Notes: generated from the letters alone by a model not told the origin. 64,000 bases of DNA from Spirochaetia bacterium (GCA_017446885.1 JAFSOR010000020.1:102769-166768), one strand, 5' to 3'. Counted from the first letter of the stretch, positions 6,334 to 52,421 are shown. Program-made: numbers and translations.

Positions 6334-8505
6334 TTGGAGAATAAAAGGTTGAAGGCGAAAGTAAGCAGCATAATTGCAGCAGTTTCTCTTATAACAGCAT
6401 TATTTTTCTGTATTCTCTCATGCGACAACGGCTCTGTATCCGACTCCTCTGCTAATAAATCAGATGGTCTGGTCAATGTTTCTCTTACCGTAGGGGAACA
6501 GACTTCAGACAATCAGAAAAGCATTTCGGTGGACAGCAGCATTGACCCTGCAAACCTGAAATTCTATTACAGGGCAACTCCCCAGTGGAGCCAGTCCAGC
6601 CCGATTCATGGCTCTACAAATAACCAGTTTGTACTTATTCCTAACTTCAGTGCAGGCTCTCCAGTCTCCCTTGGAAGTTTCACTGCCGGCCAGTGGATTT
6701 TCGATGTTCAGGTCAAGAATGGCTCTACCCTTGTTTACCAGGGCACCTCTGATGTGACCAGCATCTATCAGGGCAATGTGTCTGTAAGTGTCATGGTGAG
6801 CAAGATTATCCAGCAGGCTTCTGGCTCTGTAATTGTAAATGTCACAGCACCTACTGTGGATGCAGAGGCATTGACCGTAGGCTGGACAGGAACTGCAAGC
6901 AGCTCTGGAAATGCTGTTGCCACACCTCTGGGAGATGGAACCACTCAGTTCTCATATTCCACCAGCGCACTTTCATCAGGATACTATACATTCACATTAA
7001 ACCACTCCTCCACTGGCAGCGGTGCGGCGGTAGCTGTTGATCTGCGGTCTGGCGAGAGAGTGGAGATAACCGGCCACCTTGAGAACGGGGTATGGCAGGT
7101 TGGCTATGTCACTGTTAAAGTTTATACTATAACTATCAACGCAGAGGGATGTGTGGTGAATGCAAATACCACATCTGCGGCAGCAGGCGATAAAGTTACA
7201 TTCTATGCAACCCCATTTACAGGCAATGTGCTGGACGAGATAACTGTCACCTGGGCAGGCGGTACAATCATTCCTGCTGTTTCAGGGGATATGTACACAT
7301 TTACCATGCCAAGTGGCGATGTTTCTGTTACAGCATCTTATTCCGGAGTGAGCGCTGACATAGTTGTCTCCCATTTCCGTGCCATATTCAAGATACTGCA
7401 CGACGATAATCCTCTTGCCACATCCTTCGGACGGTCTCTTACAGAGCCTTCTGATGATGTTGACGAGTATTTCGAGATAAAGAATGTGAAGATGTGGTAC
7501 GATTCTGACAGCAGGAAAATATGCTGGCATTCAGATGACGGCACTATGAAGTTCCAGCCTGGCTCCCTGGCCGGCCTGTTCAAGGACTGCAGTGCTTTCA
7601 CCGCCATAAGCCTTGAGGGTATGGATACTTCTGCGATTACCGATATGTCCGGTATGTTCCAGAACTGCACTGCGCTGGCAGACCTCAATCTGGGTAATAT
7701 GGATACAGGCAGTGTAACTGATATGTCCAGGATGTTCATGGGTTGCTATGCTCTTACTGGCATTGATTTCGGCAGCAATTTCGACACTTCCAGCGTGACA
7801 GATATGTCCTATATGTTCTCAAGTGCAGATATATCTCACTCTGGCCAGCCTCCTAAGATGAATTTCCAGAGCCTTGATGTGAGCGGCTTTGACACTTCTT
7901 CTGTAACAAACATGAGTCATATGTTCTACCAGTGCTCCAACGCAAACCTTACAGTTTTGGATGTCTCCGGGTTCAGGACCCCGCTTGTAACAGATATGTC
8001 TTATATGTTCGCCTGCTATATGAATCAGCCATCCTATGTATCTGTTCTTGATCTCAGTGGCTGGGATTTCACAAACGTGACAACTGTGGCCAATATGTTC
8101 GACCGGTGCGAGTATCTGGATACTGGCTTGACATTCCCGGATACAACCAACTTTGCAAGCTTGACCACTATGACATATTTCTTCAGCCAGTGCCTGGCTC
8201 TTACCCCTGCAACATTTACCAATATTGTGTCTACCTGGACTTTTGCAGGGCAGGATGATTATGAGAAGAATGTGTATGGTATAGGCCATGATGCACCGAA
8301 TAAAACGCTGTTCGGAAACGCCGAGAACAATAATAAGGGTCAGAATACCGGAGCCAACTATATCTTCCGTGAGAATACCATGACTGGTTCCGGAAAGAAA
8401 TTTGCCGTCCGCCAGTCATATACGACAAAAGACGGTAAGAATCTGTGGATAGGTGGCGGAACCAACAGTAAGCATGCCCGGTTGACAATGGAGGAGAGCA
8501 TATGA
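6334..8505 (+). CDS. surface lipoprotein with C-terminal DUF285-type (~27-aa 'TDMSxMF') repeats
   Basis: Lipobox LSCDNGS; repeated LDVSGFDTSSVTNMSHMF / TDMSYMF units; BspA/Mycoplasma-DUF285-like. Confidence 0.75.
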   Translation: MENKRLKAKVSSIIAAVSLITALFFCILSCDNGSVSDSSANKSDGLVNVSLTVGEQTSDNQKSISVDSSIDPANLKFYYRATPQWSQSSPIHGSTNNQFVLIPNFSAGSPVSLGSFTAGQWIFDVQVKNGSTLVYQGTSDVTSIYQGNVSVSVMVSKIIQQASGSVIVNVTAPTVDAEALTVGWTGTASSSGNAVATPLGDGTTQFSYSTSALSSGYYTFTLNHSSTGSGAAVAVDLRSGERVEITGHLENGVWQVGYVTVKVYTITINAEGCVVNANTTSAAAGDKVTFYATPFTGNVLDEITVTWAGGTIIPAVSGDMYTFTMPSGDVSVTASYSGVSADIVVSHFRAIFKILHDDNPLATSFGRSLTEPSDDVDEYFEIKNVKMWYDSDSRKICWHSDDGTMKFQPGSLAGLFKDCSAFTAISLEGMDTSAITDMSGMFQNCTALADLNLGNMDTGSVTDMSRMFMGCYALTGIDFGSNFDTSSVTDMSYMFSSADISHSGQPPKMNFQSLDVSGFDTSSVTNMSHMFYQCSNANLTVLDVSGFRTPLVTDMSYMFACYMNQPSYVSVLDLSGWDFTNVTTVANMFDRCEYLDTGLTFPDTTNFASLTTMTYFFSQCLALTPATFTNIVSTWTFAGQDDYEKNVYGIGHDAPNKTLFGNAENNNKGQNTGANYIFRENTMTGSGKKFAVRQSYTTKDGKNLWIGGGTNSKHARLTMEESI

Positions 8506-10643
8506 GCAGGAGGATCATGTCTGTCTTTGTATTGTTATCTTTCCTCTTCCTGGCTGGATGCGACAACGGCTCGGTATCTGAACCTGCTGTCTCTAAATCA
8601 AGCGGTCTGGTCAAGGTCTGCCTTACTGTGGGCAGTGATTCTTCGGAACTTCAGAAGTCTGCGGCAGCTGACGGCAGCTACTGGACAAGCTTTACATATC
8701 AGTACAATGCAGTTCCCCAGTGGATAGACCCGGCAGGCACCAGAATCCATGGGGCCACAGATTGGATACCAATAAGCTATTCCGCAGGTATGAGCCTGGG
8801 ATACTATTCTCCTGGACAGTGGGTGTTCGGAATACGGATAAAAAATGGCGCCAATGTCATTTACGAAGGTTTCTCCGATGTCATAAATGTAGAGAACACC
8901 TCTGTGAATGTGGATGTTCTGGTGAGCAAGCTGGTTACCGAAGCTGTGGCCGGTTCTGTCCGCATAGCAGTTACTGCTCCTTCTGCTGTGGATGATGAGT
9001 TAAGCATCTCTTACACTGGCGATGCTGCAGGCGGTCCTTTTACAGTTGCCGCCGAAAGTGCATCGGACAGATATCCTTTTGAATATACAGTGACAGGTCT
9101 TTCTGCCGGGACTTACACCTTTACATTAGCCCATTCGGCAGGCGATATCGAGGATGATATAGAGATTGTCATGCCGGCAGGAGCTATGGCAGTGATAAGC
9201 GGCCATCTGGATAATGGAATATGGCAGCTTGGTTACACTACTGCAAATGTCTATTCTGTCAATGTCTCAACCACCGGCTCAGGCAGCGTATCTTCAAATG
9301 CATCCTCTGCAGCTGTGGGGGACAGAGTCTCTTTCCGCGTGAAACCATCGAACAACTCCAGGCTCAACTCCCTGTCTGTGACATGCGGCGGCAGCAATGT
9401 CTCCTATACCACCAGCGGAAGCCTCTATTCATTCATCATGCCCGAGGGCAATGTATCTATAAGTGCAGAATTTGAAGAGGCAGATACCGAGATTGATATA
9501 AACCACTTCAAGATTATAGTTCAGTCCATGTACGACAGCAACCCAAGTGCCACCTCTTTCGGCAGGTCCAATTCTTCCCCGACAGGTGCAGAGTATCTGG
9601 GCATAAAAGATGTGCTTGTATGGTATGATTCAGTAAATAACAAAATCTGCTGGTATTCCGAGAGCGGCAATAACACCCTTAAATTCAAGGCAGGTTCCAT
9701 GGCCAGCTTCTTCAAGGACTGTGTCAGATATGTATCTATAAGCCTGGAAGGTATGGATACCTCAGAGGTGACCAGCATGGCCAGCATGTTCGACGGCTGC
9801 AGTGCTCTGACCTCAATTGATTTGACCGGCCTGAATACTGCAGAGGTGAGAAACATGTCCAAGATGTTCTATGGCTGCATAGGGCTTACTTCGCTTGTGC
9901 TGGACACAGATAAAGATGTCAATGGAAAGTTTGTCAACTTCAATACTGCCAATGTGACAGATATGTCCTATATGTTCTCAAGTACTGCTCTTGATGGATC
10001 TGGTGCGGATACAAAGAAAATGAATATTGAGAGTCTGGATGTAAGCGGTCTTGACACTTCCAGCGTCACAAATATGAGCCATATGTTCTATCTTTGCTCC
10101 AACAGCAATCTTACAACATTGGATGTATCAGGCTTCAATACTTCAAAGGTAACAGATATGTCCTATATGTTCGCCTGCTGGAGAAATTTCCCAAGTTATG
10201 TGACAGCAGTTGACATGAGCGGCTGGGATTTCTCCAAAGTCACAACAGTAAACAGAATGTTCGACCGCTGCGAGCGGGTAGTCATATCATTCCCGACCCT
10301 CACAAAGCTGAGCAATATAGAAGATATCCTTTACTGGTTCAGCCACTGCTTTGCCATGACACCTGCACGGCTTGCAACAGTAATTGGATCATGGGACTTC
10401 TCTGGACATACCAATGTTTCTGCCCTTTCAGCACTTTTTGCAGTATGTGATGATAATAATGGTGAGGTTTCTCCAAACAACAGAATCATGACAAACGATA
10501 TGAATAACTATAAGTCAACAAGACAAGTATTTGATACTCATCAGAACAATACTGTAATCACAAAGCTTTATGTCGGTGGTAATAATCTTTCAAATGTCAG
10601 GGATCAGCGTCTTACAACTGTTCAAGATCCTTATAGCCCTTGA
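8502..10643 (+). CDS. surface lipoprotein with DUF285-type repeats (paralog of 6334..8505)
   Basis: Its start overlaps the upstream stop (ATGA). It has lipobox LAGCDNGS and the same domain order and repeat motifs. Confidence 0.75.
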   Translation: MSRRIMSVFVLLSFLFLAGCDNGSVSEPAVSKSSGLVKVCLTVGSDSSELQKSAAADGSYWTSFTYQYNAVPQWIDPAGTRIHGATDWIPISYSAGMSLGYYSPGQWVFGIRIKNGANVIYEGFSDVINVENTSVNVDVLVSKLVTEAVAGSVRIAVTAPSAVDDELSISYTGDAAGGPFTVAAESASDRYPFEYTVTGLSAGTYTFTLAHSAGDIEDDIEIVMPAGAMAVISGHLDNGIWQLGYTTANVYSVNVSTTGSGSVSSNASSAAVGDRVSFRVKPSNNSRLNSLSVTCGGSNVSYTTSGSLYSFIMPEGNVSISAEFEEADTEIDINHFKIIVQSMYDSNPSATSFGRSNSSPTGAEYLGIKDVLVWYDSVNNKICWYSESGNNTLKFKAGSMASFFKDCVRYVSISLEGMDTSEVTSMASMFDGCSALTSIDLTGLNTAEVRNMSKMFYGCIGLTSLVLDTDKDVNGKFVNFNTANVTDMSYMFSSTALDGSGADTKKMNIESLDVSGLDTSSVTNMSHMFYLCSNSNLTTLDVSGFNTSKVTDMSYMFACWRNFPSYVTAVDMSGWDFSKVTTVNRMFDRCERVVISFPTLTKLSNIEDILYWFSHCFAMTPARLATVIGSWDFSGHTNVSALSALFAVCDDNNGEVSPNNRIMTNDMNNYKSTRQVFDTHQNNTVITKLYVGGNNLSNVRDQRLTTVQDPYSP

Positions 10644-12176: not shown

Positions 12177-12774
12177 CAGTTTAAGCGGAACCCTTACATA
12201 CAAGGGAATAGACAATATCTACCTTTTGAATTCCTGCGGCATAGAGTGGGATATAACTGTGTCGGCCAAGACACTGCAGGCTCTGCCTCCGGTGGGGGAT
12301 GAATGCCAGGTCTACACCTACTATCTGCACACTGAGAATATGGTCAAGCTTTACGGCTTTTTCTCGAAGGATGAGCGCACCTTCTTCCTTGAGCTTAACA
12401 AGGTGAACGGCATAGGACCCAAGCAGGCCATGAAGATGCTTTCTTCCATATCTGCCAAGCAGATGGCCGATGCCCTGGACAAGGACGATGTGGCACTTTT
12501 GTCCGAGATTCCCGGCGTAGGCAAGAAGACTGCCCAGAAGCTTATGCTTGCAATGCGTGGCAAGCTGGTTATGGACGACGATATTGCAGCCGCTCCTGCC
12601 GGAAACCCTAAGTTTGCCGATATTGTTAACGCCCTTTCCGACATGGGCTTTGAGTATAAAAAGGCGCTCAAGGCAGTGGAGGAAGTTGCAAAGAATTCCG
12701 ATATTATGAATATGAAGGACGATGAGCGCGAGAAAGAGCTCTTTAAGCGCGCCATTGTATTGCTTAGCACATGA
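12163..12774 (+). CDS. ruvA: Holliday junction branch migration protein RuvA
   Basis: HhH region [12 protein letters not shown]; overlaps ruvC and ruvB. Confidence 0.9.
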
Positions 12775-13802
12775 TAGAGACAGAGAACAACGATATTTTA
12801 TCTGGCGAGATTATAGCCGAGGACAAGAAGGATTACGCCCTGCGGCCTCAGACCTTGGATGACTTCCAGGGGCAGAAGGCACTTAAGGAGAATTTAAAGA
12901 TATTCCTTAAGGCTGCAAAGGCACGTGGCGAAAGCCTTGACCACGTATTCTTAAGCGGCCCTCCGGGACTTGGAAAGACCACTCTGGCCGGAATTATTGC
13001 CCACGAGATGAACGCCGAGTTCAAGGTTACATCTGCCCCGGCTTTGGATAAGCCCAAGGACCTTGCAGGACTCCTTACCACTATATCGCCCAACACTGTC
13101 TTTTTTATAGACGAGATACACCGTCTTAAGCCTGCCATAGAAGAAATGCTCTATGTGGCCATGGAGGATTTTGAGCTTGACTGGGTTATAGGGCAGGGGC
13201 CTTCGGCCCGCTCCATAAGGCTTCCTATTCCGCCATTCACACTAGTGGGGGCAACCACCAAAAGCGGCAATGTATCAAGTCCTCTATTCAGCCGGTTTGG
13301 CATAAACATCCGCATGAACCTGTACGAAAAAGACGAGATTACCGATATCTTAAAGCGTTCTTCTGCAATCCTTGAGATAAAGATAGAAAAGTCGGCCATG
13401 GATATTCTGGCAACCTGCTGCCGCGGAACCCCCCGTGTGGCAAACCGTATCCTGCGCCGTATGCGGGACTTTGCCCAGATTTACGGCGACGATGTAATAA
13501 CAACCGAGACTGTAAGGTTTGGCCTTGAGAAACTTGAGATAGACGAGATGGGGCTTGAGGCACACGACCGTGAGCTTTTGCGCGCCATTATAGAAAAGTA
13601 TGGCGGCGGTCCGGTGGGGGCCGACACTCTGGCCATAACAATAGGGGAATCCACCGAGACACTTGAGGATTTCTACGAGCCATATTTGATACAGCAGGGC
13701 TTTATACAGCGCACCCCACGGGGCCGTGTGGCAACCCCTGCGGCATACAGACACCTTGGACTCGAGGCTCAGCTGAATGAAGACCAGCGACTTTTCCTTT
13801 GA
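12771..13802 (+). CDS. ruvB: Holliday junction helicase RuvB
   Basis: Walker [12 protein letters not shown]; AAA+ plus winged-helix C-terminus. Confidence 0.95.
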
Positions 13803-14860: not shown

Positions 14861-15814
14861 ATGAAAAAATTACTATGTCTCATTCTTTGTGCAGTTGTTG
14901 CTGTATCTTCTTTTGCATCTGGCAAGAAAGAAGAGCAGAGCCTTAAGGAAATCAACATCTCCTATGTCCGCTCTCCATTCAACCTCCCTCTGATTATAAT
15001 GAAGGAAAAGGGAATGGCCGAGAAAGCATTTGGAGAGAAGGGAATCAAGGTAAACTACTACGAGATTACATCAGGTGCCAAGCAGACCGAGGCAATCGCG
15101 GCAGGCAGCCTGGACATTGCATCTGTAATCAACTCGGTCTCTGTAATCCTGGCCAACGCTGCCGGAAACCCTGTAGAGATTTTCTCTGGTTTCAGCCGGC
15201 CACAGAAGATGTTCACCATCATGACCACAAACCCTGATATTAAGACACCTGCCGACCTTAAGGGCAAGAAGATTGCAGGCCCCAAGGGAACAGTGCTCCA
15301 CGAGCTTCTGGTTGCAGCCCTGAATAAAGAGGGTATGACCATTGCCGACGTTGAGCATATAAACATGGGTATTCCAAACGCTGTACAGGCCATGCTTGCC
15401 GGCAAGGTTGACTGCGCCCTTGCTGCCGCCGCCAATGTGGTTGCTGCCGAAAAGAACGGCGCCCGCATCCTGGTTACCTGCGAAGGCTATGTCAGCCCGC
15501 TCCTTATAGCAGCATGCTCCAAGGATTTTGCAAAGAACCATCCCGATATGCTTAAGCTTTATGTTGCAACATACAAGGAGGCAAAGGGCTGGATGGAGGC
15601 AAATATGGACGAGGCCCTTGAAATTGGGGCAAAGGTTCAGGACATCTCTATAGAGGATGCAAAGAAGCTCTACGACTGGAGCAATTTTATAGAGACCCTT
15701 TCCAAGGACGACCTGAACTATCTTGACTACGACATCGGCTTTATGATGGACACCGGCATGATCGAGCAGAAGGTGGACAAGAAAGACTTTGTGAACAAGA
15801 TGGCTCTTAAATAA
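14861..15814 (+). CDS. ABC-type substrate-binding lipoprotein, NMT1/NrtA/SsuA-like (orphan)
   Basis: Signal peptide; periplasmic-binding fold of the nitrate/sulfonate/bicarbonate family; no adjacent permease or ATPase. Confidence 0.65.
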   Translation: MKKLLCLILCAVVAVSSFASGKKEEQSLKEINISYVRSPFNLPLIIMKEKGMAEKAFGEKGIKVNYYEITSGAKQTEAIAAGSLDIASVINSVSVILANAAGNPVEIFSGFSRPQKMFTIMTTNPDIKTPADLKGKKIAGPKGTVLHELLVAALNKEGMTIADVEHINMGIPNAVQAMLAGKVDCALAAAANVVAAEKNGARILVTCEGYVSPLLIAACSKDFAKNHPDMLKLYVATYKEAKGWMEANMDEALEIGAKVQDISIEDAKKLYDWSNFIETLSKDDLNYLDYDIGFMMDTGMIEQKVDKKDFVNKMALK

Positions 15815-15840: not shown

Positions 15841-16353
15841 TCAGCTCCGGCTGGCCTCTGTCTGTTTTGCAACCTCCACGTAGTGCTTTGGGTGGGCGTG
15901 CAGGCCTGCAACTTCATCTTCTGTAAGCTGGCGCACAGCCTTTGCAGGGCTTCCGATAATCATGGAGCGTGGAGGGAACACCTTGTCCTTGGTGACAAGT
16001 GCACAGGCTCCTACAATAGATTCTTTGCCTATTACAGCACCGTCCAGTATGGTGGCACCCATTCCTATAAGGCAGTTATCCTCCACAGTGCAGCCGTGCA
16101 GAATAACGCCGTGGCCTACTGTAACGTTGTCGCCCACAGTGCATGGTGTTCCCTCCGATGTGTGCAGTATGCACAGATCCTGGATGTTGCTTCCTTTGCC
16201 TACAGTTATAGGCTCAATATCGCCCCTAAGTACTGCGCCGTACCAGATGTTGGCATCTTCCTTTATAATTACATTTCCTGTTATGACTGCATTGCCTGCT
16301 ATAAAGGCAGGTTTATCTATCTTGGGTGAAATTTCATTAAATTTTGCTATCAT
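15841..16353 (-). CDS. gamma-class carbonic anhydrase family (hexapeptide-repeat) protein
   Basis: Left-handed beta-helix hexapeptide repeats and conserved His residues typical of gamma-CA. Confidence 0.85.
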   Translation of the reverse strand: MIAKFNEISPKIDKPAFIAGNAVITGNVIIKEDANIWYGAVLRGDIEPITVGKGSNIQDLCILHTSEGTPCTVGDNVTVGHGVILHGCTVEDNCLIGMGATILDGAVIGKESIVGACALVTKDKVFPPRSMIIGSPAKAVRQLTEDEVAGLHAHPKHYVEVAKQTEASRS

Positions 16354-16432: not shown

Positions 16433-17494
16433 ATGAATAGTAACAGTTTTAGCAGAAAAGATAAAGCTATGCATACTCTCTTTGTCCTCTTATTCCTGGT
16501 TGCCGGCATTTTTTTCCTAAAGGCAACTGCGGCAGTTTTTGCACCTCTGGTCTTTTCTGTCATGATAAGCTTTATGCTGTTCCCGATTATGCAGCGTCTT
16601 GAGAGACTGCATATTCCAAGGGTTCTTGCAGTTACACTCATCATGGTTGTACTGGCAGTCATTCTTTATGTCATATTTGTAATACTTCAGAACAGCTTTA
16701 ACCTGTTCATGACCGACTATCCTCGGTACCTTAACCAGTTCCGTGACATCTACTACGATATAACTAACAAGATAATGGAAAAGTTCCAGCTTCAGGCTGC
16801 ACCCGACTTCTTTGCCGGCACCGACTGGAACAGGATGGTTCAGAATTATGTCATAAGCCTTTCAAGCACATTCACCAAGATGGCTGGATACATCTTCCTT
16901 ATCTTTATCTTCATGTTCTTCCTGTTCCTGGAATATCCATACCTTACACAGAAGATATATCAGGCATTCAGCTTCCGCGAGGCGAAGAAGTTCACAATCA
17001 TAAGTGCCCGTATCCTTAAGCTTGTAGGACGTTACTTCTTTGTAAAGACTGTGATTTCGTTCCTGACAGGTCTTGAGGTCTATATTGTCCTGACACTGCT
17101 CAAGGTCGATTTCCCGCTGGTCTGGGGCGGCATAGCGTTTGTGCTCAACTTTATTCCTACTGTCGGTTCCTCGGTAGTTGTAATTTTGATTTCTATACAG
17201 GGTACAGTTCAGTTCTATCCGAACCTTTTCATGCCTACCTTGATTTTCCTGCTCAACCTGGGAATCCAGCAGCTTATGGGTAACTTTATAGAGCCACGTA
17301 TCCAGGGGTCTAACCTCAACTTAAGCCCCGTGCTTATACTTATCTCTTTGGCATTCATGGCATGGCTCTGGGGACCTTTGGGCGCCGTACTCGCAGTTCC
17401 TGTCACTGTCATGCTGCGCGTTGTGTTCGGATACTTTGACTCCACCCGCTTCTTGAGCATACTTATGAGTACGGGTTATTCCAAAAAGAAGTGA
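16433..17494 (+). CDS. AI-2E family (PerM/UPF0118) transporter
   Basis: Multi-TM protein; C-terminal GNFIEPRIQG…LSPV…LWGPLGAVLAVP signature. Confidence 0.8.
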   Translation: MNSNSFSRKDKAMHTLFVLLFLVAGIFFLKATAAVFAPLVFSVMISFMLFPIMQRLERLHIPRVLAVTLIMVVLAVILYVIFVILQNSFNLFMTDYPRYLNQFRDIYYDITNKIMEKFQLQAAPDFFAGTDWNRMVQNYVISLSSTFTKMAGYIFLIFIFMFFLFLEYPYLTQKIYQAFSFREAKKFTIISARILKLVGRYFFVKTVISFLTGLEVYIVLTLLKVDFPLVWGGIAFVLNFIPTVGSSVVVILISIQGTVQFYPNLFMPTLIFLLNLGIQQLMGNFIEPRIQGSNLNLSPVLILISLAFMAWLWGPLGAVLAVPVTVMLRVVFGYFDSTRFLSILMSTGYSKKK

Positions 17495-18030
17495 AGCACC
17501 CCTGCCTTTACCTTTTCCTGGCATTTTTTAAAATCTCTTTCTTTACGGTTGGGGGAGGCCCTGTCATGCTGGCTGTCATGGACCAGGAGTTCCACTTGCG
17601 CCGCAAGCTGCTCTCGGACACTGCGATGAACGATATATTGGCAATCATATATTCCATGCCGGGTGCCATAGGGGTAAATGCAGCCCTGAATATAGGCTAT
17701 AAGCTTGCAGGAAAGAAGGGGAGTGCATGTGCCCTGGCCGGTGTTCTTATTCCACCAGTTGCAATAATTCTTTTTATAACCACATTTGTGGAGATGCTTA
17801 AGGGCTCGCCCCTCACCGGATATGCTTTCATAAGCATAAGAGCGGCAGTTACAGTATTTATCCTGTTTACTGTGGGCAATATGATGAAAAAGACTTTCCG
17901 TTGCTGGAAAGATGTGGTAATAGCTCTGTTTGCCTTCCTGGCAGTTGAGTTTGTTGACCTGCCTGCGGTCTATGTGGTTGCATCCTGCGGCCTTCTTGGA
18001 ATTCTTATGTACAGGGGGAGTGAGGAATGA
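17491..18030 (+). CDS. chrA: chromate transporter, short-chain CHR family, first half
   Basis: FTVGGGP motif; ~180 aa half-size ChrA. Confidence 0.8.
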   Translation: MKHPCLYLFLAFFKISFFTVGGGPVMLAVMDQEFHLRRKLLSDTAMNDILAIIYSMPGAIGVNAALNIGYKLAGKKGSACALAGVLIPPVAIILFITTFVEMLKGSPLTGYAFISIRAAVTVFILFTVGNMMKKTFRCWKDVVIALFAFLAVEFVDLPAVYVVASCGLLGILMYRGSEE

Positions 18031-18635
18031 TATACCTTATGCTCTACCTGGTGTTTGCCAAGATTGCAGTTGTTGCATTCGGGGGAGGTTATGCCAACCT
18101 GCCTATAATACAGTCCGAGCTTATGAGCCGGGGCTGGTGCACTGCCGGGCAGTTTGCCGATATTGTGGCCATAGCCCAGATGACACCTGGGCCGGTAGTA
18201 ATTAATACTGCAACCTATGTGGGCAAGACAATGGCCGGTATCCCGGGCGGCATTATAGCTACTTTGGGCTTTATAACCCCGGCAGTGCTTATAACTGTGG
18301 CAATCTACTTTTTGGCAGAAGCCCTGTCTTCTGTTAAGCTGATTAAGCATGGAATCAGGGGAATACGGGCCGGGGTGGCCGGGCTTATCCTGTGTGCAGT
18401 AATATTTTTTGTGGAGAATTCGGTCCTAAACCATGCTCTTGACCTTAACCGCCTTATCTATGATTTTTCAGGTACTGTAAAGAGCTGGAGCAGCCTGCGT
18501 CTGGTGCTTCCTGCTGTTGTTGTGCTTCTGATGAATTTATTTTTTATTAAAAAAACTCAGCTCAGTATCTATATTTGCATTATTATTTCTGTTATTATAG
18601 GTACGCCGCTTATGTATTTGTACTCATTGCTTTGA
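18027..18635 (+). CDS. chrA: chromate transporter, short-chain CHR family, second half
   Basis: FGGGYANLP and MTPGPVVIN motifs; overlaps the upstream partner. Confidence 0.8.
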   Translation: MIYLMLYLVFAKIAVVAFGGGYANLPIIQSELMSRGWCTAGQFADIVAIAQMTPGPVVINTATYVGKTMAGIPGGIIATLGFITPAVLITVAIYFLAEALSSVKLIKHGIRGIRAGVAGLILCAVIFFVENSVLNHALDLNRLIYDFSGTVKSWSSLRLVLPAVVVLLMNLFFIKKTQLSIYICIIISVIIGTPLMYLYSLL

Positions 18636-21258: not shown

Positions 21259-22422
21259 ATGAAGAAGTTCTTGTTGTTAGCCCTTATATTTATCCTTCCG
21301 GCAGGTGTTTTCGCCGATAAAAAGAGCGAGAAGTTCGCTGCAACCATAGGATCAAACAATGTGGCCAAAATCGAGGCTGCAATAAAAGAGGGGGCCGATG
21401 TGAACGGCTACAGCGGCGAGAAAGCTTTTACTCCTCTTATGATTGCCTGCCAGAGCGAGGATTCCATAGAAGTGGTTAAACTGCTCCTTAAATATGGGGC
21501 AAAGGTAAACGAGACCAATGTCAATGGCGATACAGCTCTTATCATTGCTTCCCAGAGCAATACAAATGCAGAAATCCATAAAACCCTTATCGAATCCGGT
21601 GCCGATGTCAATATGCGCAACAAAGACCAGACCACACCTCTTATGGCAGCTTGTGGCAACAACCTTAAGTCTGCTGTTGTCGAGACATTGATAAGTTCTG
21701 GAGCACGCCTTGACGACAAGGATATGGATGGCCGCACACCCCTTATCTTTGCTGTAACCTACAACGAGAATGCAAAAGTTACCGAAGCTTTGCTCAAGGC
21801 AGGTGCAGACCCCAACACCAAGAACAGGTATGGGCTTCCGGTTGTCATGATGGCTGCCCAGTCCAACAAGAATGCAGCAGTGCTGCAGGCTCTTATAGAT
21901 GCCGGTGCCGACTTAAGCTTCTCAATCCAGGGGCTTAACCCTATGTGCTATGCCGCAATCTACAACCCTAATCCCGATATCATCGGGGTGTTGCACAAGA
22001 AGGGCCTTTCTATAAGCGATTACAATGAGAACGGTGTCTCGCCGTTCCTCTATTCCTGCTTCTACAACTTCTCTTCCGATGTAACCAAGAAATTCTTGGA
22101 ACTGGGAGCAGACCCCAAGCAGACCGATAAAAATGGAATCTCTGCCCTTATGTATGCCGCAATGCACAACGGCAATGCCGAGATTATCCATGTTCTTGTA
22201 AAAGCTGGTGCCGATGTCAATGCCAAGGATAAGGCCAACGGCCTTACACCCCTTATGCTGGCAGCCCTGCAGAACGAGAACGGCTCTGTCATAAATGCAC
22301 TTTTGGAGGAGGGGGCCGACATCAGCCTCAAATCCAATGCAGGCATGACAGCCTACGAATATGCGGTAAAGAACGAGACACCTGTATCCAAACTGGATGT
22401 GGTACAGGAGCTTGAACCGTAA
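21259..22422 (+). CDS. secreted ankyrin-repeat protein
   Basis: Signal peptide; about ten ANK repeats (G.TPLM.A…GADVN). Confidence 0.85.
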   Translation: MKKFLLLALIFILPAGVFADKKSEKFAATIGSNNVAKIEAAIKEGADVNGYSGEKAFTPLMIACQSEDSIEVVKLLLKYGAKVNETNVNGDTALIIASQSNTNAEIHKTLIESGADVNMRNKDQTTPLMAACGNNLKSAVVETLISSGARLDDKDMDGRTPLIFAVTYNENAKVTEALLKAGADPNTKNRYGLPVVMMAAQSNKNAAVLQALIDAGADLSFSIQGLNPMCYAAIYNPNPDIIGVLHKKGLSISDYNENGVSPFLYSCFYNFSSDVTKKFLELGADPKQTDKNGISALMYAAMHNGNAEIIHVLVKAGADVNAKDKANGLTPLMLAALQNENGSVINALLEEGADISLKSNAGMTAYEYAVKNETPVSKLDVVQELEP

Positions 22423-24591: not shown

Positions 24592-24622
24592 GTGTCCCCC
24601 AGGCCTGAAAACACAATTCCGA

Positions 24623-24646
24623 CCCCGGCTTTTCGCCGGGGTTTTT
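24623..24646 (+). terminator. intrinsic terminator after the fusA paralog
   Basis: Hairpin ccccggc-ttttc-gccgggg followed by T5. Confidence 0.8.
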
Positions 24647-24663
24647 ACTAGGCGGGTTGTTCT

Positions 24664-25425
24664 ATGAAAAAAATTGCTATTTATGGTAAAGGTGGAATCG
24701 GAAAATCTACTGTAACCTCCAACATATCGGCAGCTCTTGCAATAAGCGGCTACAAGGTCATGCAGATAGGCTGCGACCCCAAGGCCGACTCCACAATAAA
24801 CCTTATGCATGGAAAGCAGCTTGAGCCTGTCCTTAACTATATGCGGGACCACGATTCAAACCCCAAGATAGAAGATATAATCCACACTGGTTTCGGCGGC
24901 GTCATGTGCATGGAGACAGGCGGTCCCACCCCTGGGCTCGGCTGTGCAGGCCGTGGAATAATAGCCACATTCCAGCTTATGGACGAGCTTGATGTGTTTA
25001 ATATCCTTAAACCCGATGTTGTCCTTTACGATGTCCTAGGCGATGTTGTATGCGGCGGTTTTGCAGCCCCAATACGCGAGGGCTATGCACAGGATATTTA
25101 CATTGTCACCTCTGGCGAGAAAATGTCTTTGTTTGCAGCCAACAATATACGCACCGCAGTAAAGAACTTCGAGGAAAGGGGCTATGCCAGGGTGCGCGGC
25201 ATAATATTCAACTCCCGCGGCCTTAATGGAGAAGAAGAGAAGGTACAAGCCTTTGCCGACAGCATTGGTGTGCCTGTAATTGGCCATCTGCCAAGGTCGC
25301 AGGATATAATGGATTTTGAAGATAAAGGAATGACAGTGGTGGAGGGGAATCCAGACCTGCCTATAAGCAGGGAATTCCTCTCTATCGCCGATAAAATAAT
25401 GAAGTGTAAGAGCGATGAGAGCTGA
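24664..25425 (+). CDS. nitrogenase iron protein-like (NifH/BchL/CfbC family) ATPase
   Basis: P-loop GKGGIGKST, CDPKADST, and both 4Fe-4S Cys ligands (GCAGRGI; VCGGFAAPIREG). Only 253 aa. Confidence 0.85.
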   Translation: MKKIAIYGKGGIGKSTVTSNISAALAISGYKVMQIGCDPKADSTINLMHGKQLEPVLNYMRDHDSNPKIEDIIHTGFGGVMCMETGGPTPGLGCAGRGIIATFQLMDELDVFNILKPDVVLYDVLGDVVCGGFAAPIREGYAQDIYIVTSGEKMSLFAANNIRTAVKNFEERGYARVRGIIFNSRGLNGEEEKVQAFADSIGVPVIGHLPRSQDIMDFEDKGMTVVEGNPDLPISREFLSIADKIMKCKSDES

Positions 25426-26725
25426 ATACAGGACTATAGCACAGCTTGCCTCTGAAAAACAGCAGAACAAGTCGGTCTCTGTGTTCGGCGGCTGCTGGCT
25501 CCACTACAACGGGCCTGGAAGTTCTGGCTACGGAGTTAAGCGCACAGCCATGCTGCTGCCTGAAAGTGCCATGCTTATGGTGGGGCCTATGGGGTGCAGC
25601 AGGTCTGGCACTGTGGTTGCCGAAAAATATGGTTTTGCCCACCGTATGTTCTACCTGCACCTGGACGACAGGAGCATTGCTGTAGGCTCTTACCTTAAAA
25701 AGATTCCGGAGGCAGTCCAATACATTAAAGACCTTGGACAGTTCAAAGCTGTCCTTATATGCATGACATGTCTCGATGCCCTCCTTGGAACGGACCTGGC
25801 AGGCCTGGGACGCAAGATAAGTGACCAGGTAGGAATTCCCGTGACTACCACATTTATGGATCCTATTGTAAGGGATGGTAACTACGGCCCCATGGTGCAG
25901 GTGCGTCAGGCTATAACAAACTGCTTCGAATCTGGCAAAAAAGCTGCGGAACTCAATACTGCGGTAAACCTGCTTGGAACCTTTGCACCGCTTGAGAAGG
26001 ATAGCGAGCTTTTTACAATTCTTTCAGGTGCTGGCATAAAAGAGATAAAGACTGCAGCAGGGTGCAGCACCTTTGAAGAGCTTAAGAATATGGGTACCTC
26101 GAGAGCCAACATAATAGTGCATCCTCAGGCAGCAGCCTGCGGTATAGACCTTGAGAAAAGGCTTGGTATGCCATTTATTAAGCTCTACAAATCCTATGTG
26201 CCAGATAAAATAGAAGATAATTATAAAAAGCTGGGCTCTTTCCTTGGCCTTGATATCGACTGCGCCAAACTGCGGAAGGTTTCAGAAGAAGCGATAAATG
26301 AATTTGCCCGTAAGTACAGCGGCAAGAAGATTGCAGTAGGCGAGGCAGTCTGCGGCAATCCGTTTGACATAGCAATTATGCTGCTTGGTGCAGGAATAGA
26401 GGTCCCATTTGTCTTCCGCGATATGATACATCCCGAAGACTGGGAGCTTATTTCATTGCTCAACAGCGTGGCACCCGATTTAAAGGTATATTCTGGGGTC
26501 CATCCTACCACTGCCGCCTTCCCGGCCACATTGCCAGAGGCCGACCTTTATCTTGGCCTTGATGCAGGGTACTATAATCAGGAGGCAATAAGCGCCGCCT
26601 GGCCTTTCGACAGGACATTCTACGGTTTTGACGGCATACATGCGCTATTGGAAATTATGGACACTGCTTTCAAAAACCCCAAGGGGCACAGACAGCAGAT
26701 GAAAGGAACATATCTTACGGTGTAG
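25415..26725 (+). CDS. nitrogenase component-1-type oxidoreductase, NifD/NflD-like subunit
   Basis: Overlaps the upstream gene; three conserved Cys (GGCW, MGCSRSG, ICMTC) placed as in NifD/BchN; 436 aa. Confidence 0.7.
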   Translation: MRAEYRTIAQLASEKQQNKSVSVFGGCWLHYNGPGSSGYGVKRTAMLLPESAMLMVGPMGCSRSGTVVAEKYGFAHRMFYLHLDDRSIAVGSYLKKIPEAVQYIKDLGQFKAVLICMTCLDALLGTDLAGLGRKISDQVGIPVTTTFMDPIVRDGNYGPMVQVRQAITNCFESGKKAAELNTAVNLLGTFAPLEKDSELFTILSGAGIKEIKTAAGCSTFEELKNMGTSRANIIVHPQAAACGIDLEKRLGMPFIKLYKSYVPDKIEDNYKKLGSFLGLDIDCAKLRKVSEEAINEFARKYSGKKIAVGEAVCGNPFDIAIMLLGAGIEVPFVFRDMIHPEDWELISLLNSVAPDLKVYSGVHPTTAAFPATLPEADLYLGLDAGYYNQEAISAAWPFDRTFYGFDGIHALLEIMDTAFKNPKGHRQQMKGTYLTV

Positions 26726-26734
26726 GGGGCTTTT

Positions 26735-27676
26735 ATGAAAGGATTTTTCAGATATCTTGCACCATTTGCTCCCGACTATTCTGGGGCTGTCTCTGCGCTG
26801 TATGCTGCAGGCGGCCTTGTGGTGCTGTGCGACCCGGGCGGCTGCTCCGGCAATGTGGCAGGCTACGACGAGCCCCGGTTCTATGGCGATAAAGTATGTT
26901 TCTACAGCGCTGCAATCAGGGAGATGGACACTATATTCGGCCGCGACGACAAGCTTAAGAGAAAGATATGCGATGCAGCCCTGCTTGGCGATTACAAGTT
27001 TGTGGCACTGGTAGGCACTCCTGCCGTATCTGTCATAGGAACAGACCTTGCAGCTTCTGCAAAAGCGGTGGAGCAGGAGACAGGCATACCGTCGTTCAGC
27101 GTAAGCACATCTGGAATGGAGAATTATTCCTTTGGCGAGGCCAAGGCAATTACAGCTTATGTCAAGAAGTTCCTGCCGCTATTTGCTGATGCCACAGTAT
27201 TCGGTGCAACACCGCTTAACAGGGCTTTTGACGATGATCTTTCTTCTTTTGCCGCAAATTGTACTTCTAAGGAAAATGTGTGCTTTTCTCCAGGTGCATT
27301 ATCTGCATGCCGCTTTATAAAGGAAAAGTTTGGCATTCCGTATACTCTCAGCTATCCGGAAAGTCAATCCATAAAAGAGGCTGCTAAAGAGGCTGGCAGT
27401 GCAAAGCGCATACTTATAGTGCATCAGCAGGGGGTAGGGAATACCCTGCGTAACATTATAAGACGCTCTTCCGATGCTGATATAACAGTGGGAAGTTTTT
27501 TCCTGCAAGATAGTGAGTTTGCCGAAAAACAGGATATTTTCTTCCAGGGCGAGGATGAGCTTACTGCCGCATCAATCGAGGCAGACCTGGTCTATGCCGA
27601 CCCCATGTATCGCCGTACACTGCCTGCTGATGTGCGGTTTGCCCCTCTGGTGCACTGCGCCCTTTCCGGCTGTTGA
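26735..27676 (+). CDS. nitrogenase component-1-type oxidoreductase, NifK/NflK-like subunit (short)
   Basis: LCDPGGCSG and further Cys residues; Oxidored_nitro-like fold; only 313 aa. Confidence 0.6.
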   Translation: MKGFFRYLAPFAPDYSGAVSALYAAGGLVVLCDPGGCSGNVAGYDEPRFYGDKVCFYSAAIREMDTIFGRDDKLKRKICDAALLGDYKFVALVGTPAVSVIGTDLAASAKAVEQETGIPSFSVSTSGMENYSFGEAKAITAYVKKFLPLFADATVFGATPLNRAFDDDLSSFAANCTSKENVCFSPGALSACRFIKEKFGIPYTLSYPESQSIKEAAKEAGSAKRILIVHQQGVGNTLRNIIRRSSDADITVGSFFLQDSEFAEKQDIFFQGEDELTAASIEADLVYADPMYRRTLPADVRFAPLVHCALSGC

Positions 27677-27707
27677 AACTTGGAGCAATCTGTTGTAGGA
27701 TAAAAGT

Positions 27708-28145
27708 ATGGAGAAAAGGAAAGAATCGGCGATAAAAGAGCTGGCTATGTTCTATCCACGGCTTCTTGCAGGGCTTATAACTATGCTGCTTACTGCGGCC
27801 GCAGGCATCGCACTTGCTGTAATAGTAGTATATCCCCTCTGGAGTACTGCAACCCATTCAAAAGCAGCCTACAACTGGTTCTTCCTGTTGTGTGTAGTCC
27901 TTGCTTTGGTCATTATCCCAACTGTGCGGATCCGTGGTCTTAAGAAGTCGGGCTTGAGCGCTGGTGATATAGTCAGGCATCACATTTTGCCTGTGTTGGT
28001 GCATCTTATCTATATCTTCCTTTTGTTTATGGCAGCTGTCCTTGCATGGATGTTCTTTGCAAACAACCATATTCCCGGCGGTGTTATCTGTATCATTTTC
28101 ATCCTGATAATCACAGGAATTTTTAAAATTTATTTGAAAAAATAA
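27708..28145 (+). CDS. small polytopic membrane protein, last gene of the nif-like operon
   Basis: Four predicted TM helices; 32 bp after the K-like gene; a terminator follows. Confidence 0.5.
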   Translation: MEKRKESAIKELAMFYPRLLAGLITMLLTAAAGIALAVIVVYPLWSTATHSKAAYNWFFLLCVVLALVIIPTVRIRGLKKSGLSAGDIVRHHILPVLVHLIYIFLLFMAAVLAWMFFANNHIPGGVICIIFILIITGIFKIYLKK

Positions 28146-28238: not shown

Positions 28239-28268
28239 AGGCTGATTTTTCAATCAGCCTTTTTTTTG
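28239..28268 (+). terminator. intrinsic terminator closing the nif-like operon
   Basis: aggctgatt-tttc-aatcagcct followed by T8. Confidence 0.8.
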
Positions 28269-31061: not shown

Positions 31062-31739
31062 ATGATTAACACAGTTACTGAAATTGATGATATGGTGGCA
31101 CTTAAGAATGTGCTTATCAGCGTTTCAGATAAAACAGGGCTTGAGGATTTTGTAAAAGGGCTTATCAAGATAAACCCCGAGATAAAAATCTATTCCACAG
31201 GTGGCACTTTCACCGCAATCAAGGGCTATCTGGGCAGCTGTGCAGACAAAAACCTTATCCAGGTGTCCGATTACACAAAGCAGCCCGAGATGCAGGGTGG
31301 CCTTGTAAAGACACTGGACTTCAAGATCTACCTTGGAATCCTTTCCGAGACCTACAACGATGCCCACAAAAAGGACATTGCCCGCACCAATGCCACCATC
31401 TTTGACATGATAGTTGTAAACCTGTATCCGTTTGAGAAGACAGTTTCAAAATCAGAATCCACATCCGAGAATGCCCGTGGCAATATTGATATCGGCGGTC
31501 CATGCATGCTGCGTGCATCTGCCAAGAACTTTTTGCGTGTAGCCTCTGTGACAGACCCAGCAGACTATCCTGTAATCCTTAAAAACCTTGGTTCTCAGAA
31601 AGGGACTTTGAGTTTTGCACAGCGGTTTGAGCTTGCCAAAAAGACATTTGCCACCACAGCTAAGTACGACACAGCAATAAGCGCATATCTTGCCGGCCTT
31701 TCGCCATCCGATGCGGCAAAAGTTTACAATCTTCACTAA
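31062..31739 (+). CDS. purH: IMP cyclohydrolase domain of PurH (MGS-like), separate ORF
   Basis: Aligns to PurH residues ~1-200 (…VNLYPF…NIDIGGP…). Ends with TAA, followed by an AAGGAG RBS. Confidence 0.8.
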   Translation: MINTVTEIDDMVALKNVLISVSDKTGLEDFVKGLIKINPEIKIYSTGGTFTAIKGYLGSCADKNLIQVSDYTKQPEMQGGLVKTLDFKIYLGILSETYNDAHKKDIARTNATIFDMIVVNLYPFEKTVSKSESTSENARGNIDIGGPCMLRASAKNFLRVASVTDPADYPVILKNLGSQKGTLSFAQRFELAKKTFATTAKYDTAISAYLAGLSPSDAAKVYNLH

Positions 31740-31750
31740 GGAGTAAAGCT

Positions 31751-33004
31751 ATGGCAGAAAATCTCAAGGATATGTATAAGAACATAAACAAGGATGCATT
31801 CCCACAGTTCATGGACATAAGTTTCAGAAACTCTGACAGCGACAGGCAGACTCTTTTCTACGAGAAGGTGCAGTGGGATATCGCTGGCGAGAAGCTGGGC
31901 CTCCGCTACGGCGAGAACCCCGACCAGCCGGCAGCCATGTACAAGCTTATAAACGGCAACCTGGCCATAGGCGGGGTGGAGACAGTGCTCAAGGGGCGCT
32001 ATCTTGCCTCTGATGTGGAGCTCCTGCAGTCTGGCAAGCACCCTGGGAAAATCAATATAACCGACGTGGACAACGGGCTCAATATCCTGCGCTACTTCAC
32101 AGACACCCCATGCAGTGTAATCATCAAGCACAATAACCCATCTGGTGTTGCCAAGGGCGAGACACTGGCCGATGCCTTCCACAAATCCCTTATGGCAGAC
32201 CGCATTGCAGCATTTGGAGGTGCTGTTATCTTGAACCGCGAGGTTGACCTTGAGACTGCCGAACTGGTTACAGAGGGCTATGTAGAAGTTGTTGCTGCCC
32301 CAGAGTTCTCGGCAAAGGCTTTCGAGCTTTTCCAGACCAAGAAGAACCTGCGTGTTATGCGGATTAAGAACATAGACAAGCTCCAGGACTTTGCATATTC
32401 ACGGTTCATGGACTTTAAGTCTATACTGGACGGCGGAGTAATCGCCCAGTGGTCGTATCTGCCAAAAGCCCGGACAAAGGATGATTTCCTCCCGGCTGTA
32501 TGCGAGTACAAAGGTACAGAATACCGTGTGAACCGGCAGCCTACCGACAAGGAATACGAGGATATGATATTCGGCTGGCTGGTTGAAAGCGGTGTTACAA
32601 GCAACTCTGTGATATATGTCAAAGACGGTGTTACAGTTGGAATAGGAACTGGCGAGCAGGACCGTGTAGGCGTTGCCGAGATTGCCCGTGACAAGGCATA
32701 TAAGAAAATGTGCGACCGCATCTGCTGGGATTTATACGCAAAGTCCTGGTACGAGCTTACAGACCCTGAAAAACGAGCTTCCATAGAATCTGTTGTAAAC
32801 GACGAGCACGGCGGACTTAAGGGGGCTGTAATGGTTTCCGATGCCTTCTTCCCGTTCCGGGACGGAATAGACATTGGCCTTAAAGAAGGGGTAACCGCAG
32901 TGGTTCAGCCGGGCGGCTCGCTCCGTGACTTTGAATCTATAATTGCCTGCAACGAATACAATGCAGCCATGGTCTACACAGGCCAGAGGAGTTTCAGGCA
33001 CTGA
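31751..33004 (+). CDS. purH: AICAR formyltransferase domain of PurH, separate ORF
   Basis: …RYGENPDQ… and the rest of the AICARFT domain; different frame from the N-domain ORF. Confidence 0.85.
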   Translation: MAENLKDMYKNINKDAFPQFMDISFRNSDSDRQTLFYEKVQWDIAGEKLGLRYGENPDQPAAMYKLINGNLAIGGVETVLKGRYLASDVELLQSGKHPGKINITDVDNGLNILRYFTDTPCSVIIKHNNPSGVAKGETLADAFHKSLMADRIAAFGGAVILNREVDLETAELVTEGYVEVVAAPEFSAKAFELFQTKKNLRVMRIKNIDKLQDFAYSRFMDFKSILDGGVIAQWSYLPKARTKDDFLPAVCEYKGTEYRVNRQPTDKEYEDMIFGWLVESGVTSNSVIYVKDGVTVGIGTGEQDRVGVAEIARDKAYKKMCDRICWDLYAKSWYELTDPEKRASIESVVNDEHGGLKGAVMVSDAFFPFRDGIDIGLKEGVTAVVQPGGSLRDFESIIACNEYNAAMVYTGQRSFRH

Positions 33005-51825: not shown

Positions 51826-52421
51826 TTTCTTCCTCCGAAAATATGAAGATAATCCTCAAAAAGCTCCTTGGCTTTCTCGACACAGCCGCCGCATACCTTG
51901 CCCAGCTTGGTCTTCTCCTGAAGCTCCTCAAAGGTTTTTCCGCCAGCTTTGACGAAATTCTCGATGTCTACATCAGTTATATTGTTGCATACGCATATTA
52001 CTTTTGCAACTTCTTTCTCGAGCATACCTTCTTTGCCGTTTTTCTTGCAGTAATCCTCGATAGCTGCACGCAGTGCCCGGTCTCCCAGGACAGAGCAGTG
52101 TATCTTGTGGTCAGGCAGACCGCCCAGCTGGCCTACAATATCCTCGGGCTTAATCTTATATGCCTCTTTTATAGGCATGCCCTTGACCATCTCGCTCATC
52201 ATGGATGTGCTTGCAATGGCGCTGGCACAGCCGTATGTCTTCCACTTTATGTCTTCAATCTTGTCATCTTTGACTTTGATGGCTACCAGCATCTCGTCGC
52301 CGCAGGTTATGTTTCCCACCTTTCCCCAGCCGTCGGCCTGGTAGGAAGCCTCATCTTCCAGTATATTACGTGGATTGGTGAAGTGGTCCTTCACTTTATC
52401 GGTATAAACCCATGAAATCAT
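51822..52421 (-). CDS. nifU: Fe-S cluster scaffold NifU (IscU-like N-domain plus BFD-like 2Fe-2S domain)
   Basis: Cys ligands at GDEM…, GCASAIA…; C-terminal CxxC…GGC. Confidence 0.85.
   Translation of the reverse strand: MISWVYTDKVKDHFTNPRNILEDEASYQADGWGKVGNITCGDEMLVAIKVKDDKIEDIKWKTYGCASAIASTSMMSEMVKGMPIKEAYKIKPEDIVGQLGGLPDHKIHCSVLGDRALRAAIEDYCKKNGKEGMLEKEVAKVICVCNNITDVDIENFVKAGGKTFEELQEKTKLGKVCGGCVEKAKELFEDYLHIFGGRK

Follow-up and report, generated by a model that had tools for sequence, protein, structure and literature searches.

Isethionate reductase (ISR) and other nitrogenase-like (NFL) enzymes provide the setting for the locus described here, an H-D-K gene set in a 64,000-nt stretch of DNA from Spirochaetia bacterium (GCA_017446885.1, JAFSOR010000020.1:102769-166768), called the window below. 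ISR is a Group IV-F enzyme encoded by isrBHDK (rcc02237-02234 in Rhodobacter capsulatus); it needs an SsuCAB transporter and has been reported from gut bacteria and spirochaetes (PMC11423573). Of the three cluster Cys positions, IsrD retains only the Cys88-equivalent, with Arg and Pro/Ser at the other two, and IsrK retains all three (PMC11423573). Methylthio-alkane reductase (MAR; MarBHDK, Group IV-C, PDB 9fmg) combines a P-cluster with an [Fe8S9C] cluster, MarD Cys270/His429 and the NifB-like MarB, and serves anaerobic sulfur acquisition by reductive C-S cleavage (PMC12552129). The Cys pattern of NFLs that carry only a [4Fe-4S] cluster, such as DPOR and COR, has also been described (PMC13474568). 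Group VI NflHDK of Elusimicrobia has highly divergent D and K subunits, which keep no more than four of the six P-cluster Cys, and no NifB; its loci come from groundwater lineages and are rich in radical S-adenosylmethionine (SAM) and B12-binding genes, and its H is sister to BchL (10.1101/765248). Each NFL clade solved so far (CfbCD, MAR and ISR) has revealed new anaerobic chemistry, and a 2026 review of the field names the many uncharacterized NFL clades as its main open challenge (PMC13474568).

The H-D-K Locus and Its Class

ORF calling placed four co-directional open reading frames (ORFs) at window positions 24664-28145, in exact agreement with an earlier reading made from the sequence alone (the sequence-only reading). 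The H gene (24664-25425, +) encodes 253 aa and is overlapped by 11 nt by the D-like gene (25415-26725, +; 436 aa), which is followed by the K-like gene (26735-27676, +; 313 aa) and a four-transmembrane ORF (27708-28145, +; 145 aa with four hydrophobic segments). The first three together encode a NifH-family ATPase and two component-1 subunits of family PF00148, the combination that marks the nitrogenase superfamily. D and K represent a deep, uncharacterized NFL clade distinguished by its ligand pattern and partner genes, Isr having been compared by its description only, and the window locus is the minimal form of this clade. The earlier proposal of a nitrogenase-like, non-diazotrophic and poorly characterized system in a housekeeping context agrees with these results, and no characterized relative was found.

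H matches PF00142 (Fer4_NifH) at 2e-91 and has the P-loop (G8-S15), switch I and switch II; its Cys94 and Cys130 correspond to NifH Cys97 and Cys132, so that the NifH-like ATPase with an intact P-loop and both cluster Cys is as first described. Its identity is 45% to C. butyricum NifH and 40% to BchL; it scores 227 bits against MAR structure chain 9fmg_D, and stays below the cut-offs of both the CfbC model (317 bits vs. 402) and the NifH model (312 bits vs. 394). These features suggest an NflH-type Fe protein, which would act as the ATP-dependent reductase component in the form of a homodimer bridged by a predicted [4Fe-4S] cluster.

PF00148 (nitrogenase component 1 type oxidoreductase) is matched by D over its full length (8e-31) and by K over the N-terminal third only (8e-12). 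The AlphaFold model of D (pLDDT 86.6) aligned in Foldseek to NifD/K, VnfD, NifE and MarD with TM scores of 0.6-0.7 (0.67 for MarD), and that of K (pLDDT 84.9) also showed a component-1 fold. Both predicted structures match NifD/K, VnfD/K, NifE/N and MarD about equally (TM 0.55-0.70, 13-18% identity); comparison of the models with the PDB confirms a component-1 fold and does not separate the subfamilies. As single sequences, D and K reached E-values of only ~1e-6 and ~2e-3, respectively, against solved structures. A D-family profile found NifE as its best PDB match (79 bits), followed by NifD/VnfD (~60), MarD (50.6) and BchB (36), and is about equally remote from NifE, NifD, MarD and BchB; the group IV placement offered in the sequence-only reading is therefore tentative.

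Every score against the curated Nif, Bch and Cfb models lay below its cut-off, and for D and K far below. The nifD, nifK and nifE models gave 13-47 bits against cut-offs of 427-654 (D, 47 bits vs. 505 for nifE and 32 vs. 654 for nifD; K, 13 vs. 427 for nifK), and the BchN, BchB and BchY models gave 17-36 bits against 407-490 (D, 36 vs. 425 for BchY). The CfbD model had no match in D and reached 27.6 bits in K (cut-off 268). D is 19% identical to NifD, 17% to NifE and 13% to BchN; K is 15% identical to NifK, 23% to NifE and 20% to BchB. Together with the nif model scores, the 19 and 15% identities to NifD and NifK place the pair outside Nif, Anf and Vnf, as had been anticipated. A neighbor-joining tree separated both the D family and the K family, each as one clade, from NifD, NifE, NifK, BchN and BchB; the tree carries no support values, ignores a small group of mis-called ORFs and is indicative only. 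A plasmid collection searched by tblastn supplied Nif, Bch and one related Treponema locus as references, and none of Mar, Isr or Cfb type.

The ligand pattern sets the family apart. In HMMER alignments, D C61 aligns to NifD Cys88 and C119 to Cys154. Both are invariant among 22 D sequences down to 22% identity, and C116, which forms a CxxC with C119, is nearly so. The NifD Cys62 position is occupied in the D family by an invariant NGPGxxGxGVKR motif; C27 is kept in the nearer subclade only and does not lie at that position. There is no conserved Cys or His at the NifD Cys275 or His442 positions in the alignment of the 22 D sequences, and D has no ligands for an iron-molybdenum cofactor (FeMo-co) or L-cluster. 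In K, C37 lies within a GGCxGN motif, aligns to the NifD Cys88/NifK Cys95 position and is the only invariant Cys across the family; an invariant Pro (P96) stands at the NifK Cys153/NifD Cys154 position and an Ala at the C70 position. The P-cluster-like Cys sets attributed earlier to both subunits are thus there in part: D C61 and C119 and K C37 are genuine equivalents, but Cys62 has none and K keeps one of the three NifK ligands.

Four Cys, and no others, are conserved family-wide: C61, C116 and C119 of D and C37 of K. The family alignments of D and K contain no extra conserved Cys/His site for a second cofactor. Three Cys in D and one in K point to one [4Fe-4S] cluster shared by the two subunits at each interface, as in DPOR/COR, and the lack of a NifB gene is in keeping with this. 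Some family members (P0232-P0248; 770-1000 aa) are natural fusions of D and K in a single chain; in the 853-aa fusion P0234, residues 38-439 align to D and residues 494-851 to K, end to end. These fusions indicate that D and K act together, and they support a D/K complex.

All four genes are under strong purifying selection. Ratios of non-synonymous to synonymous substitution rates (dN/dS), computed against rumen Spirochaetia metagenome-assembled genomes (MAGs) at dS ~0.9-1.1, were 0.02 (H), 0.10 (D), 0.09-0.11 (K) and 0.10-0.14 (membrane ORF). K aligns with all relatives through to their C-termini, an invariant His included. Its length of 313 aa reflects an internal deletion of ~27 residues in a variable loop, which is shared by the related locus L008 and not by L009 (340 aa), and exactly 313 aa is kept in 13 separate 90%-identity clusters. 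A truncated nifDK pseudogene, which would have refuted the sequence-only reading, was ruled out by the C-terminal alignment of K, its length conservation and dN/dS (0.02-0.11 for H, D and K). The "strongly shortened" subunits of that reading are no special trait, as both lengths fall within the usual range of the family (D, 420-445 aa; K, 313-390 aa).

The membrane protein had also been regarded as an appended part of the system, a view that we abandon. It matched no family in Pfam or the curated models, and among 94 loci its gene is present only in the window, L008 and L009. In L009 it is inverted relative to the H, D and K genes (HDK; ORF at 12468-12905, minus), where it is still under purifying selection. 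This narrow distribution and the inversion rule it out as a system component. In the window it is probably co-transcribed with HDK, as a lineage-specific neighbor and not a conserved member.

Family Distribution and Gene Neighborhoods

The arrangement, at first taken as unrecognized, is widespread in gut and rumen anaerobes. We found at least 570 confirmed matches in a collection with one genome per species, and, at E <= 1e-30, members of 474 clusters formed at 50% identity. Members are mostly Clostridia (Blautia, Coprococcus, Eubacterium, Ruminococcus and Anaerostipes) and Negativicutes (Megasphaera and Selenomonas) of gut and rumen, and others come from Coriobacteriia, Synergistota (Pyramidobacter), Victivallales and Spirochaetia. 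The nearest named genomes to the window are rumen "Spirochaetia bacterium" MAGs at 82-83% identity, which share its gene order of EF-G, H, D, K, membrane ORF and SecA. A protein identical to the window's is also present on metagenome contigs of up to 96 kb.

Neighborhoods were compared at 94 loci by clustering all ORFs and by a table of tblastn matches, which brought out a context in relatives that the sequence-only reading had overlooked: SsuABC-type transporter genes, and HydE/HydF/TM1266 or HypFCDE. In a distant clade (33-39% identity to the window D; ~60 loci), an H-D-K set precedes hypF-hypC-hypD-hypE and a TM1266-like gene, after which H-D-K occurs a second time, as in Blautia luti (L015, 9117-20868), with the same layout in, for instance, L016-L023, L054 and L085. 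In the nearer clade (39-60%), HDK is followed within one operon by genes for an SsuC/TauC/SaoP-like permease, an ATP-binding cassette (ABC) ATPase and an SsuA-family substrate-binding protein (L012, L091-L094, L011 and L005), or has the binding-protein gene alone beside it (L004, L014 and L006). Loci linked to the importer or binding protein belong to Synergistota, Negativicutes and Clostridia or to unassigned metagenomes. In L011 and L091-L094, the HDK-ABC operon has TM1266-like, hydE and hydF genes on its upstream or downstream side; in L091 (7244-15408) the HDK-permease-ATPase-SsuA-like operon lies beside all three. The partner genes scored above their model cut-offs (HydE, 505 bits vs. 255; HydF, 562 vs. 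326; TM1266, 114 vs. 61; HypF, 763 vs. 466; HypC, 63 vs. 48; HypD, 385 vs. 193; HypE, 428 vs. 252). The position of TM1266/hydE/hydF on either side suggests that these genes, HDK and the importer form a conserved functional cluster; the window lineage has HDK only. In a Selenomonas locus, a gene for CooS, the catalytic subunit of anaerobic CO dehydrogenase (L005, 2062-4119; 494 bits vs. cut-off 478), lies directly upstream of a cluster of ssuABC-like genes, HDK, hypFCDE and a further DK pair.

A third branch is found on plasmid pTS1 of the cultured Treponema saccharophilum (L088, 7599-15255), whose D is 29% identical to the window D over 90%. Its HDK genes are flanked by genes for two binding proteins, an iron-complex/B12-type ABC permease ("iron ABC transporter permease") and an ATPase; here a different importer type is joined to the same enzyme family. 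In the literature, we found no publication on an association of NFL with Hyp proteins, on a hyp-linked HDK cluster or on the gut clade, and PMC9431212 and PMC12552129 contain nothing on this gut clade.

Bacteria of the human gut and the rumen commonly carry this clade (among them Blautia, Coprococcus, Eubacterium, Megasphaera, Selenomonas, Pyramidobacter and Spirochaetia), and cultured carriers exist for several of these groups (Pyramidobacter piscolens, Selenomonas and Blautia). The clade shows two strong genomic partnerships, with a sulfonate-type importer and with hydrogenase-cofactor maturases.

Comparison with Described Systems

ISR resembles the window system in being an H/D/K NFL with a predicted four-Cys [4Fe-4S] cluster only, at the D/K interface, and no FeMo-co-type ligands. 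IsrK also starts close to its first ligand region, and its Cys37 has the same numbering as K C37. ISR depends on an SsuCAB-type importer; here, genes for such an importer are co-operonic with HDK in relatives, and the window has an orphan SsuA-family binding-protein gene 9.8 kb away. The distribution of the Cys differs: three in D and one in K here, the reverse of the one in IsrD and three in IsrK (pattern from PMC11423573), a distinction drawn from the description of Isr and not from its sequence. No IsrB-type gene is present, no radical SAM gene adjoins the window HDK, and the radical SAM genes near HDK in relatives are HydE equivalogs. The HydE/HydF or HypFCDE genes of these relatives are unreported for Isr.

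DPOR and COR (BchLNB and BchXYZ; Group V) resemble the window system in having two components, a single inter-subunit [4Fe-4S] cluster held by three D-type and one K-type ligands, and no need for NifB. In contrast to them, D and K show only 13-20% identity and score far below the Bch cut-offs, there are no bch genes or other chlorophyll-biosynthesis context, and the third D ligand is probably the family-specific C116 of the CxxC instead of a Cys62-equivalent. CfbCD (Group IV-B, with an F430 context in methanogens) is set apart by the scores of H and K, both below cut-off, and by a distinct K that is always present. The mode of action would be like that of the [4Fe-4S]-only NFLs (DPOR/COR, CfbCD and ISR).

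MAR has a similar H and a D of the same fold, but its MarD-type ligands (Cys270/His429), full P-cluster set and adjacent B gene are absent here, and the D profile scores only ~51 bits to MarD. NifEN provides the best D-family profile match, its natural E-N fusions parallel the D-K fusions, and a scaffold role would fit the maturase-rich neighborhoods of relatives. Unlike NifEN, the window pair shows only 17-23% identity, falls far below the nifE cut-off and has no nifB or nifDK client. Group VI NflHDK shares the highly divergent D/K, the count of four Cys and the lack of NifB; however, its neighborhoods differ, and H here is nearer NifH (45%) than BchL (40%). True nitrogenase requires six P-cluster Cys, of which D has the Cys88 and Cys154 equivalents and K that of Cys95 only, as well as FeMo-co ligands and nifB/E/N, which are missing.

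Proposed Function and Alternatives

We tentatively favor a functional two-component NFL reductase that would use ATP to reduce an imported substrate of organosulfur type, a reading that we put at somewhat below an even chance. For it we infer a scheme of cluster type, ligands, electron path, substrate class and physiological role. An H2 dimer, with two MgATP and one [4Fe-4S] cluster on Cys94/Cys130, would dock on D2K2 and give low-potential electrons to a [4Fe-4S] cluster at each D/K interface. Ligands of the latter would be D C61, C119 and most likely C116, together with K C37, and its electrons would pass to a bound small substrate other than N2. This could be an imported small organic anion of sulfonate or organosulfur type, and its reductive C-S cleavage would serve sulfur acquisition, by analogy with ISR and MAR, for which such cleavage has been proposed and shown, respectively (PMC11423573, PMC13474568, PMC12552129). 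We regard such an anion as the most likely substrate because operons that join HDK to an SsuABC-type importer recur in four or more phyla-level lineages. The window has an SsuA-family (aliphatic sulfonate-type) ABC substrate-binding lipoprotein gene (14861-15814, +; TIGR01728, 172 bits vs. cut-off 163.5), whose product is 32-39% identical to the HDK-adjacent binding proteins of L004, L006, L091, L093 and L094 and might be a distal partner of HDK. If organosulfur cleavage is true, the clade would represent a further means by which sulfur is acquired anaerobically in the gut.

Several observations weigh against this assignment. The binding-protein gene lies 9.8 kb upstream of HDK among unrelated genes, a position conserved in sister MAGs, and the window has no permease or ATPase gene of its importer. 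Most HDK-adjacent binding proteins fall just below the SsuA cut-off, and SsuA/NMT1-family binding proteins bind non-sulfonate ligands too. No sulfur-assimilation genes or sulfur-responsive elements adjoin the HDK locus. The Cys pattern reverses that of IsrDK, and an IsrB-type radical SAM gene is lacking; that the four Cys would meet at the D/K interface is a prediction from alignments. Linkage to HydE/HydF/TM1266 or HypFCDE is equally consistent across the loci and unexplained by simple sulfur scavenging. We hold the organosulfur reading no more firmly than this because transporter specificity is unproven, the window has no permease or ATPase, and the Cys pattern is unlike that of Isr.

A less probable but serious alternative is that HDK is a module of metallocofactor biosynthesis or maturation, an ATP-driven reductase or scaffold similar to NifEN/NifH or CfbCD, which would work with HydE/HydF/TM1266 or HypF/C/D/E, the builders of Fe-CO/CN centers. 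The recurrent partnership with these proteins and the match of the D-family profile to NifE point to such cofactor chemistry. HypF/C/D/E, all above cut-offs, lie between two HDK sets in ~60 fetched loci, and the HDK-ABC operons of L011 and L091-L094 adjoin HydE, HydF and TM1266-like genes; in the PDB, the profile scores highest against a scaffold protein (NifE, 79 bits), and Selenomonas has CooS next to the cluster. The partner genes of the window organism would have to lie elsewhere in its genome, as the 64-kb window and the fetched parts of sister contigs contain no maturase gene. Moreover, hydE and hydF are housekeeping genes in organisms with [FeFe]-hydrogenase, so part of this linkage may be circumstantial. 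An importer encoded in the operon is easier to reconcile with a substrate that is catabolized or assimilated than with maturation, and neither D nor K has a conserved extra Cys/His site for a second cofactor.

A bolder and rather unlikely proposal is an unrecognized NFL class that would operate alongside the hydrogenase machinery for CO/CN ligands, which is represented by HypFCDE in loci of Blautia type and by HydE/HydF/TM1266 in the nearer clade. It could be an ATP-driven reductase that makes or processes diatomic ligands or imported precursors, or the host of a new organometallic Fe cofactor, and the window genes would then be a stripped-down catalytic core in rumen spirochaetes. If a partnership with HypCDEF or HydEF is true, it would link nitrogenase-type and hydrogenase-type metallocofactor biochemistry.

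It is improbable that HDK is a reductase of tetrapyrroles or other rings (DPOR/COR/CfbCD, or the role proposed for Group VI) that makes or modifies a cofactor. The 3+1 Cys pattern is like that of the DPOR/COR NB-cluster (PMC13474568), the best model for H is CfbC (317 bits), and the T. saccharophilum branch lies beside iron-complex/B12-type ABC transporter genes. Tetrapyrrole-biosynthesis genes are nevertheless absent from the window and the examined neighborhoods, the CfbD, BchN, BchB and BchY models reach only 17-36 bits against cut-offs of 268-490, and CfbD is homomeric, whereas a distinct K is always present here. Finally, despite the H-D-K gene order, the 45% identity of H to NifH and the report that Group IV-A Nfa enzymes fix N2 (PMC13474568), a genuine minimal nitrogenase or decaying nifHDK remnant is scarcely credible: the locus is not a nitrogenase because FeMo-co ligands and nifB/E/N are absent and the nifD/nifK/nifE models stay below cut-off (13-47 bits vs. 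427-654), D lacking Cys275/His442 and Cys62 equivalents and K two of the three P-cluster Cys, and a remnant is excluded by the dN/dS values (0.02-0.11), the intact termini and the conservation of the family over 474 clusters.

Flanking Regions and Other Window Genes

The locus is flanked by an EF-G gene (791 bits) and secA, as the sequence-only reading had it, and the remainder of the 64 kb is housekeeping in character. Elsewhere in the 64-kb window no nifB/E/N was found, also in keeping with that reading, nor any further PF00148, NifB-type radical SAM, Hyd or Hyp gene; the sole radical SAM gene is of MiaB type and lies ~9 kb downstream of HDK. An Rfam search found no riboswitch or leader near the HDK locus.

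Both hairpins reported earlier are present. The unit is closed by an intrinsic terminator (28239-28268, +) that a terminator scan found as a 9-bp stem (28239-28260) plus T8, with a fold z-score of -3.5. Upstream, a GC-rich hairpin with a T-run (24621-24651, +) may terminate transcription of the EF-G gene or serve as an attenuator; it can be read from the sequence but was not among the hits of the consensus scan, and its 9-bp stem is present in the minimum free energy fold. The hairpin is invariant in the window and two sister genomes (L009 and L010), where flanking synonymous sites are near saturation. With 13 nt between its end and the start codon of H, there is no space for a promoter proper to HDK, and it is possible that HDK is controlled by read-through of this hairpin or attenuation at it.

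Several other window genes deserve mention. Adjoining the orphan binding-protein gene, a gamma-carbonic-anhydrase-like hexapeptide protein is encoded at 15841-16353 (minus), and a chromate-transporter-family pair, split over two ORFs, follows at 17491-18635. A class-V aminotransferase of the NifS/IscS/SufS-type cysteine desulfurase family (PF00266, 4e-83) is encoded at 52418-53671 (minus), 25 kb from HDK. PurH is apparently split at 31062-33004 into a 225-aa protein (MGS and part of AICARFT_IMPCHas) and a 417-aa protein (AICARFT_IMPCHas), and the split is kept in sister MAGs. Tandem proteins of 723 and 713 aa, each with DUF285 and a divergent InlB B-repeat domain, are encoded at 6334-10643. 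Two ankyrin-repeat proteins of 387 and 399 aa, at 21259-22422 and 58534-59733 (minus), the first with an N-terminal signal-like sequence, are unusual cargo in a free-living or commensal spirochaete.

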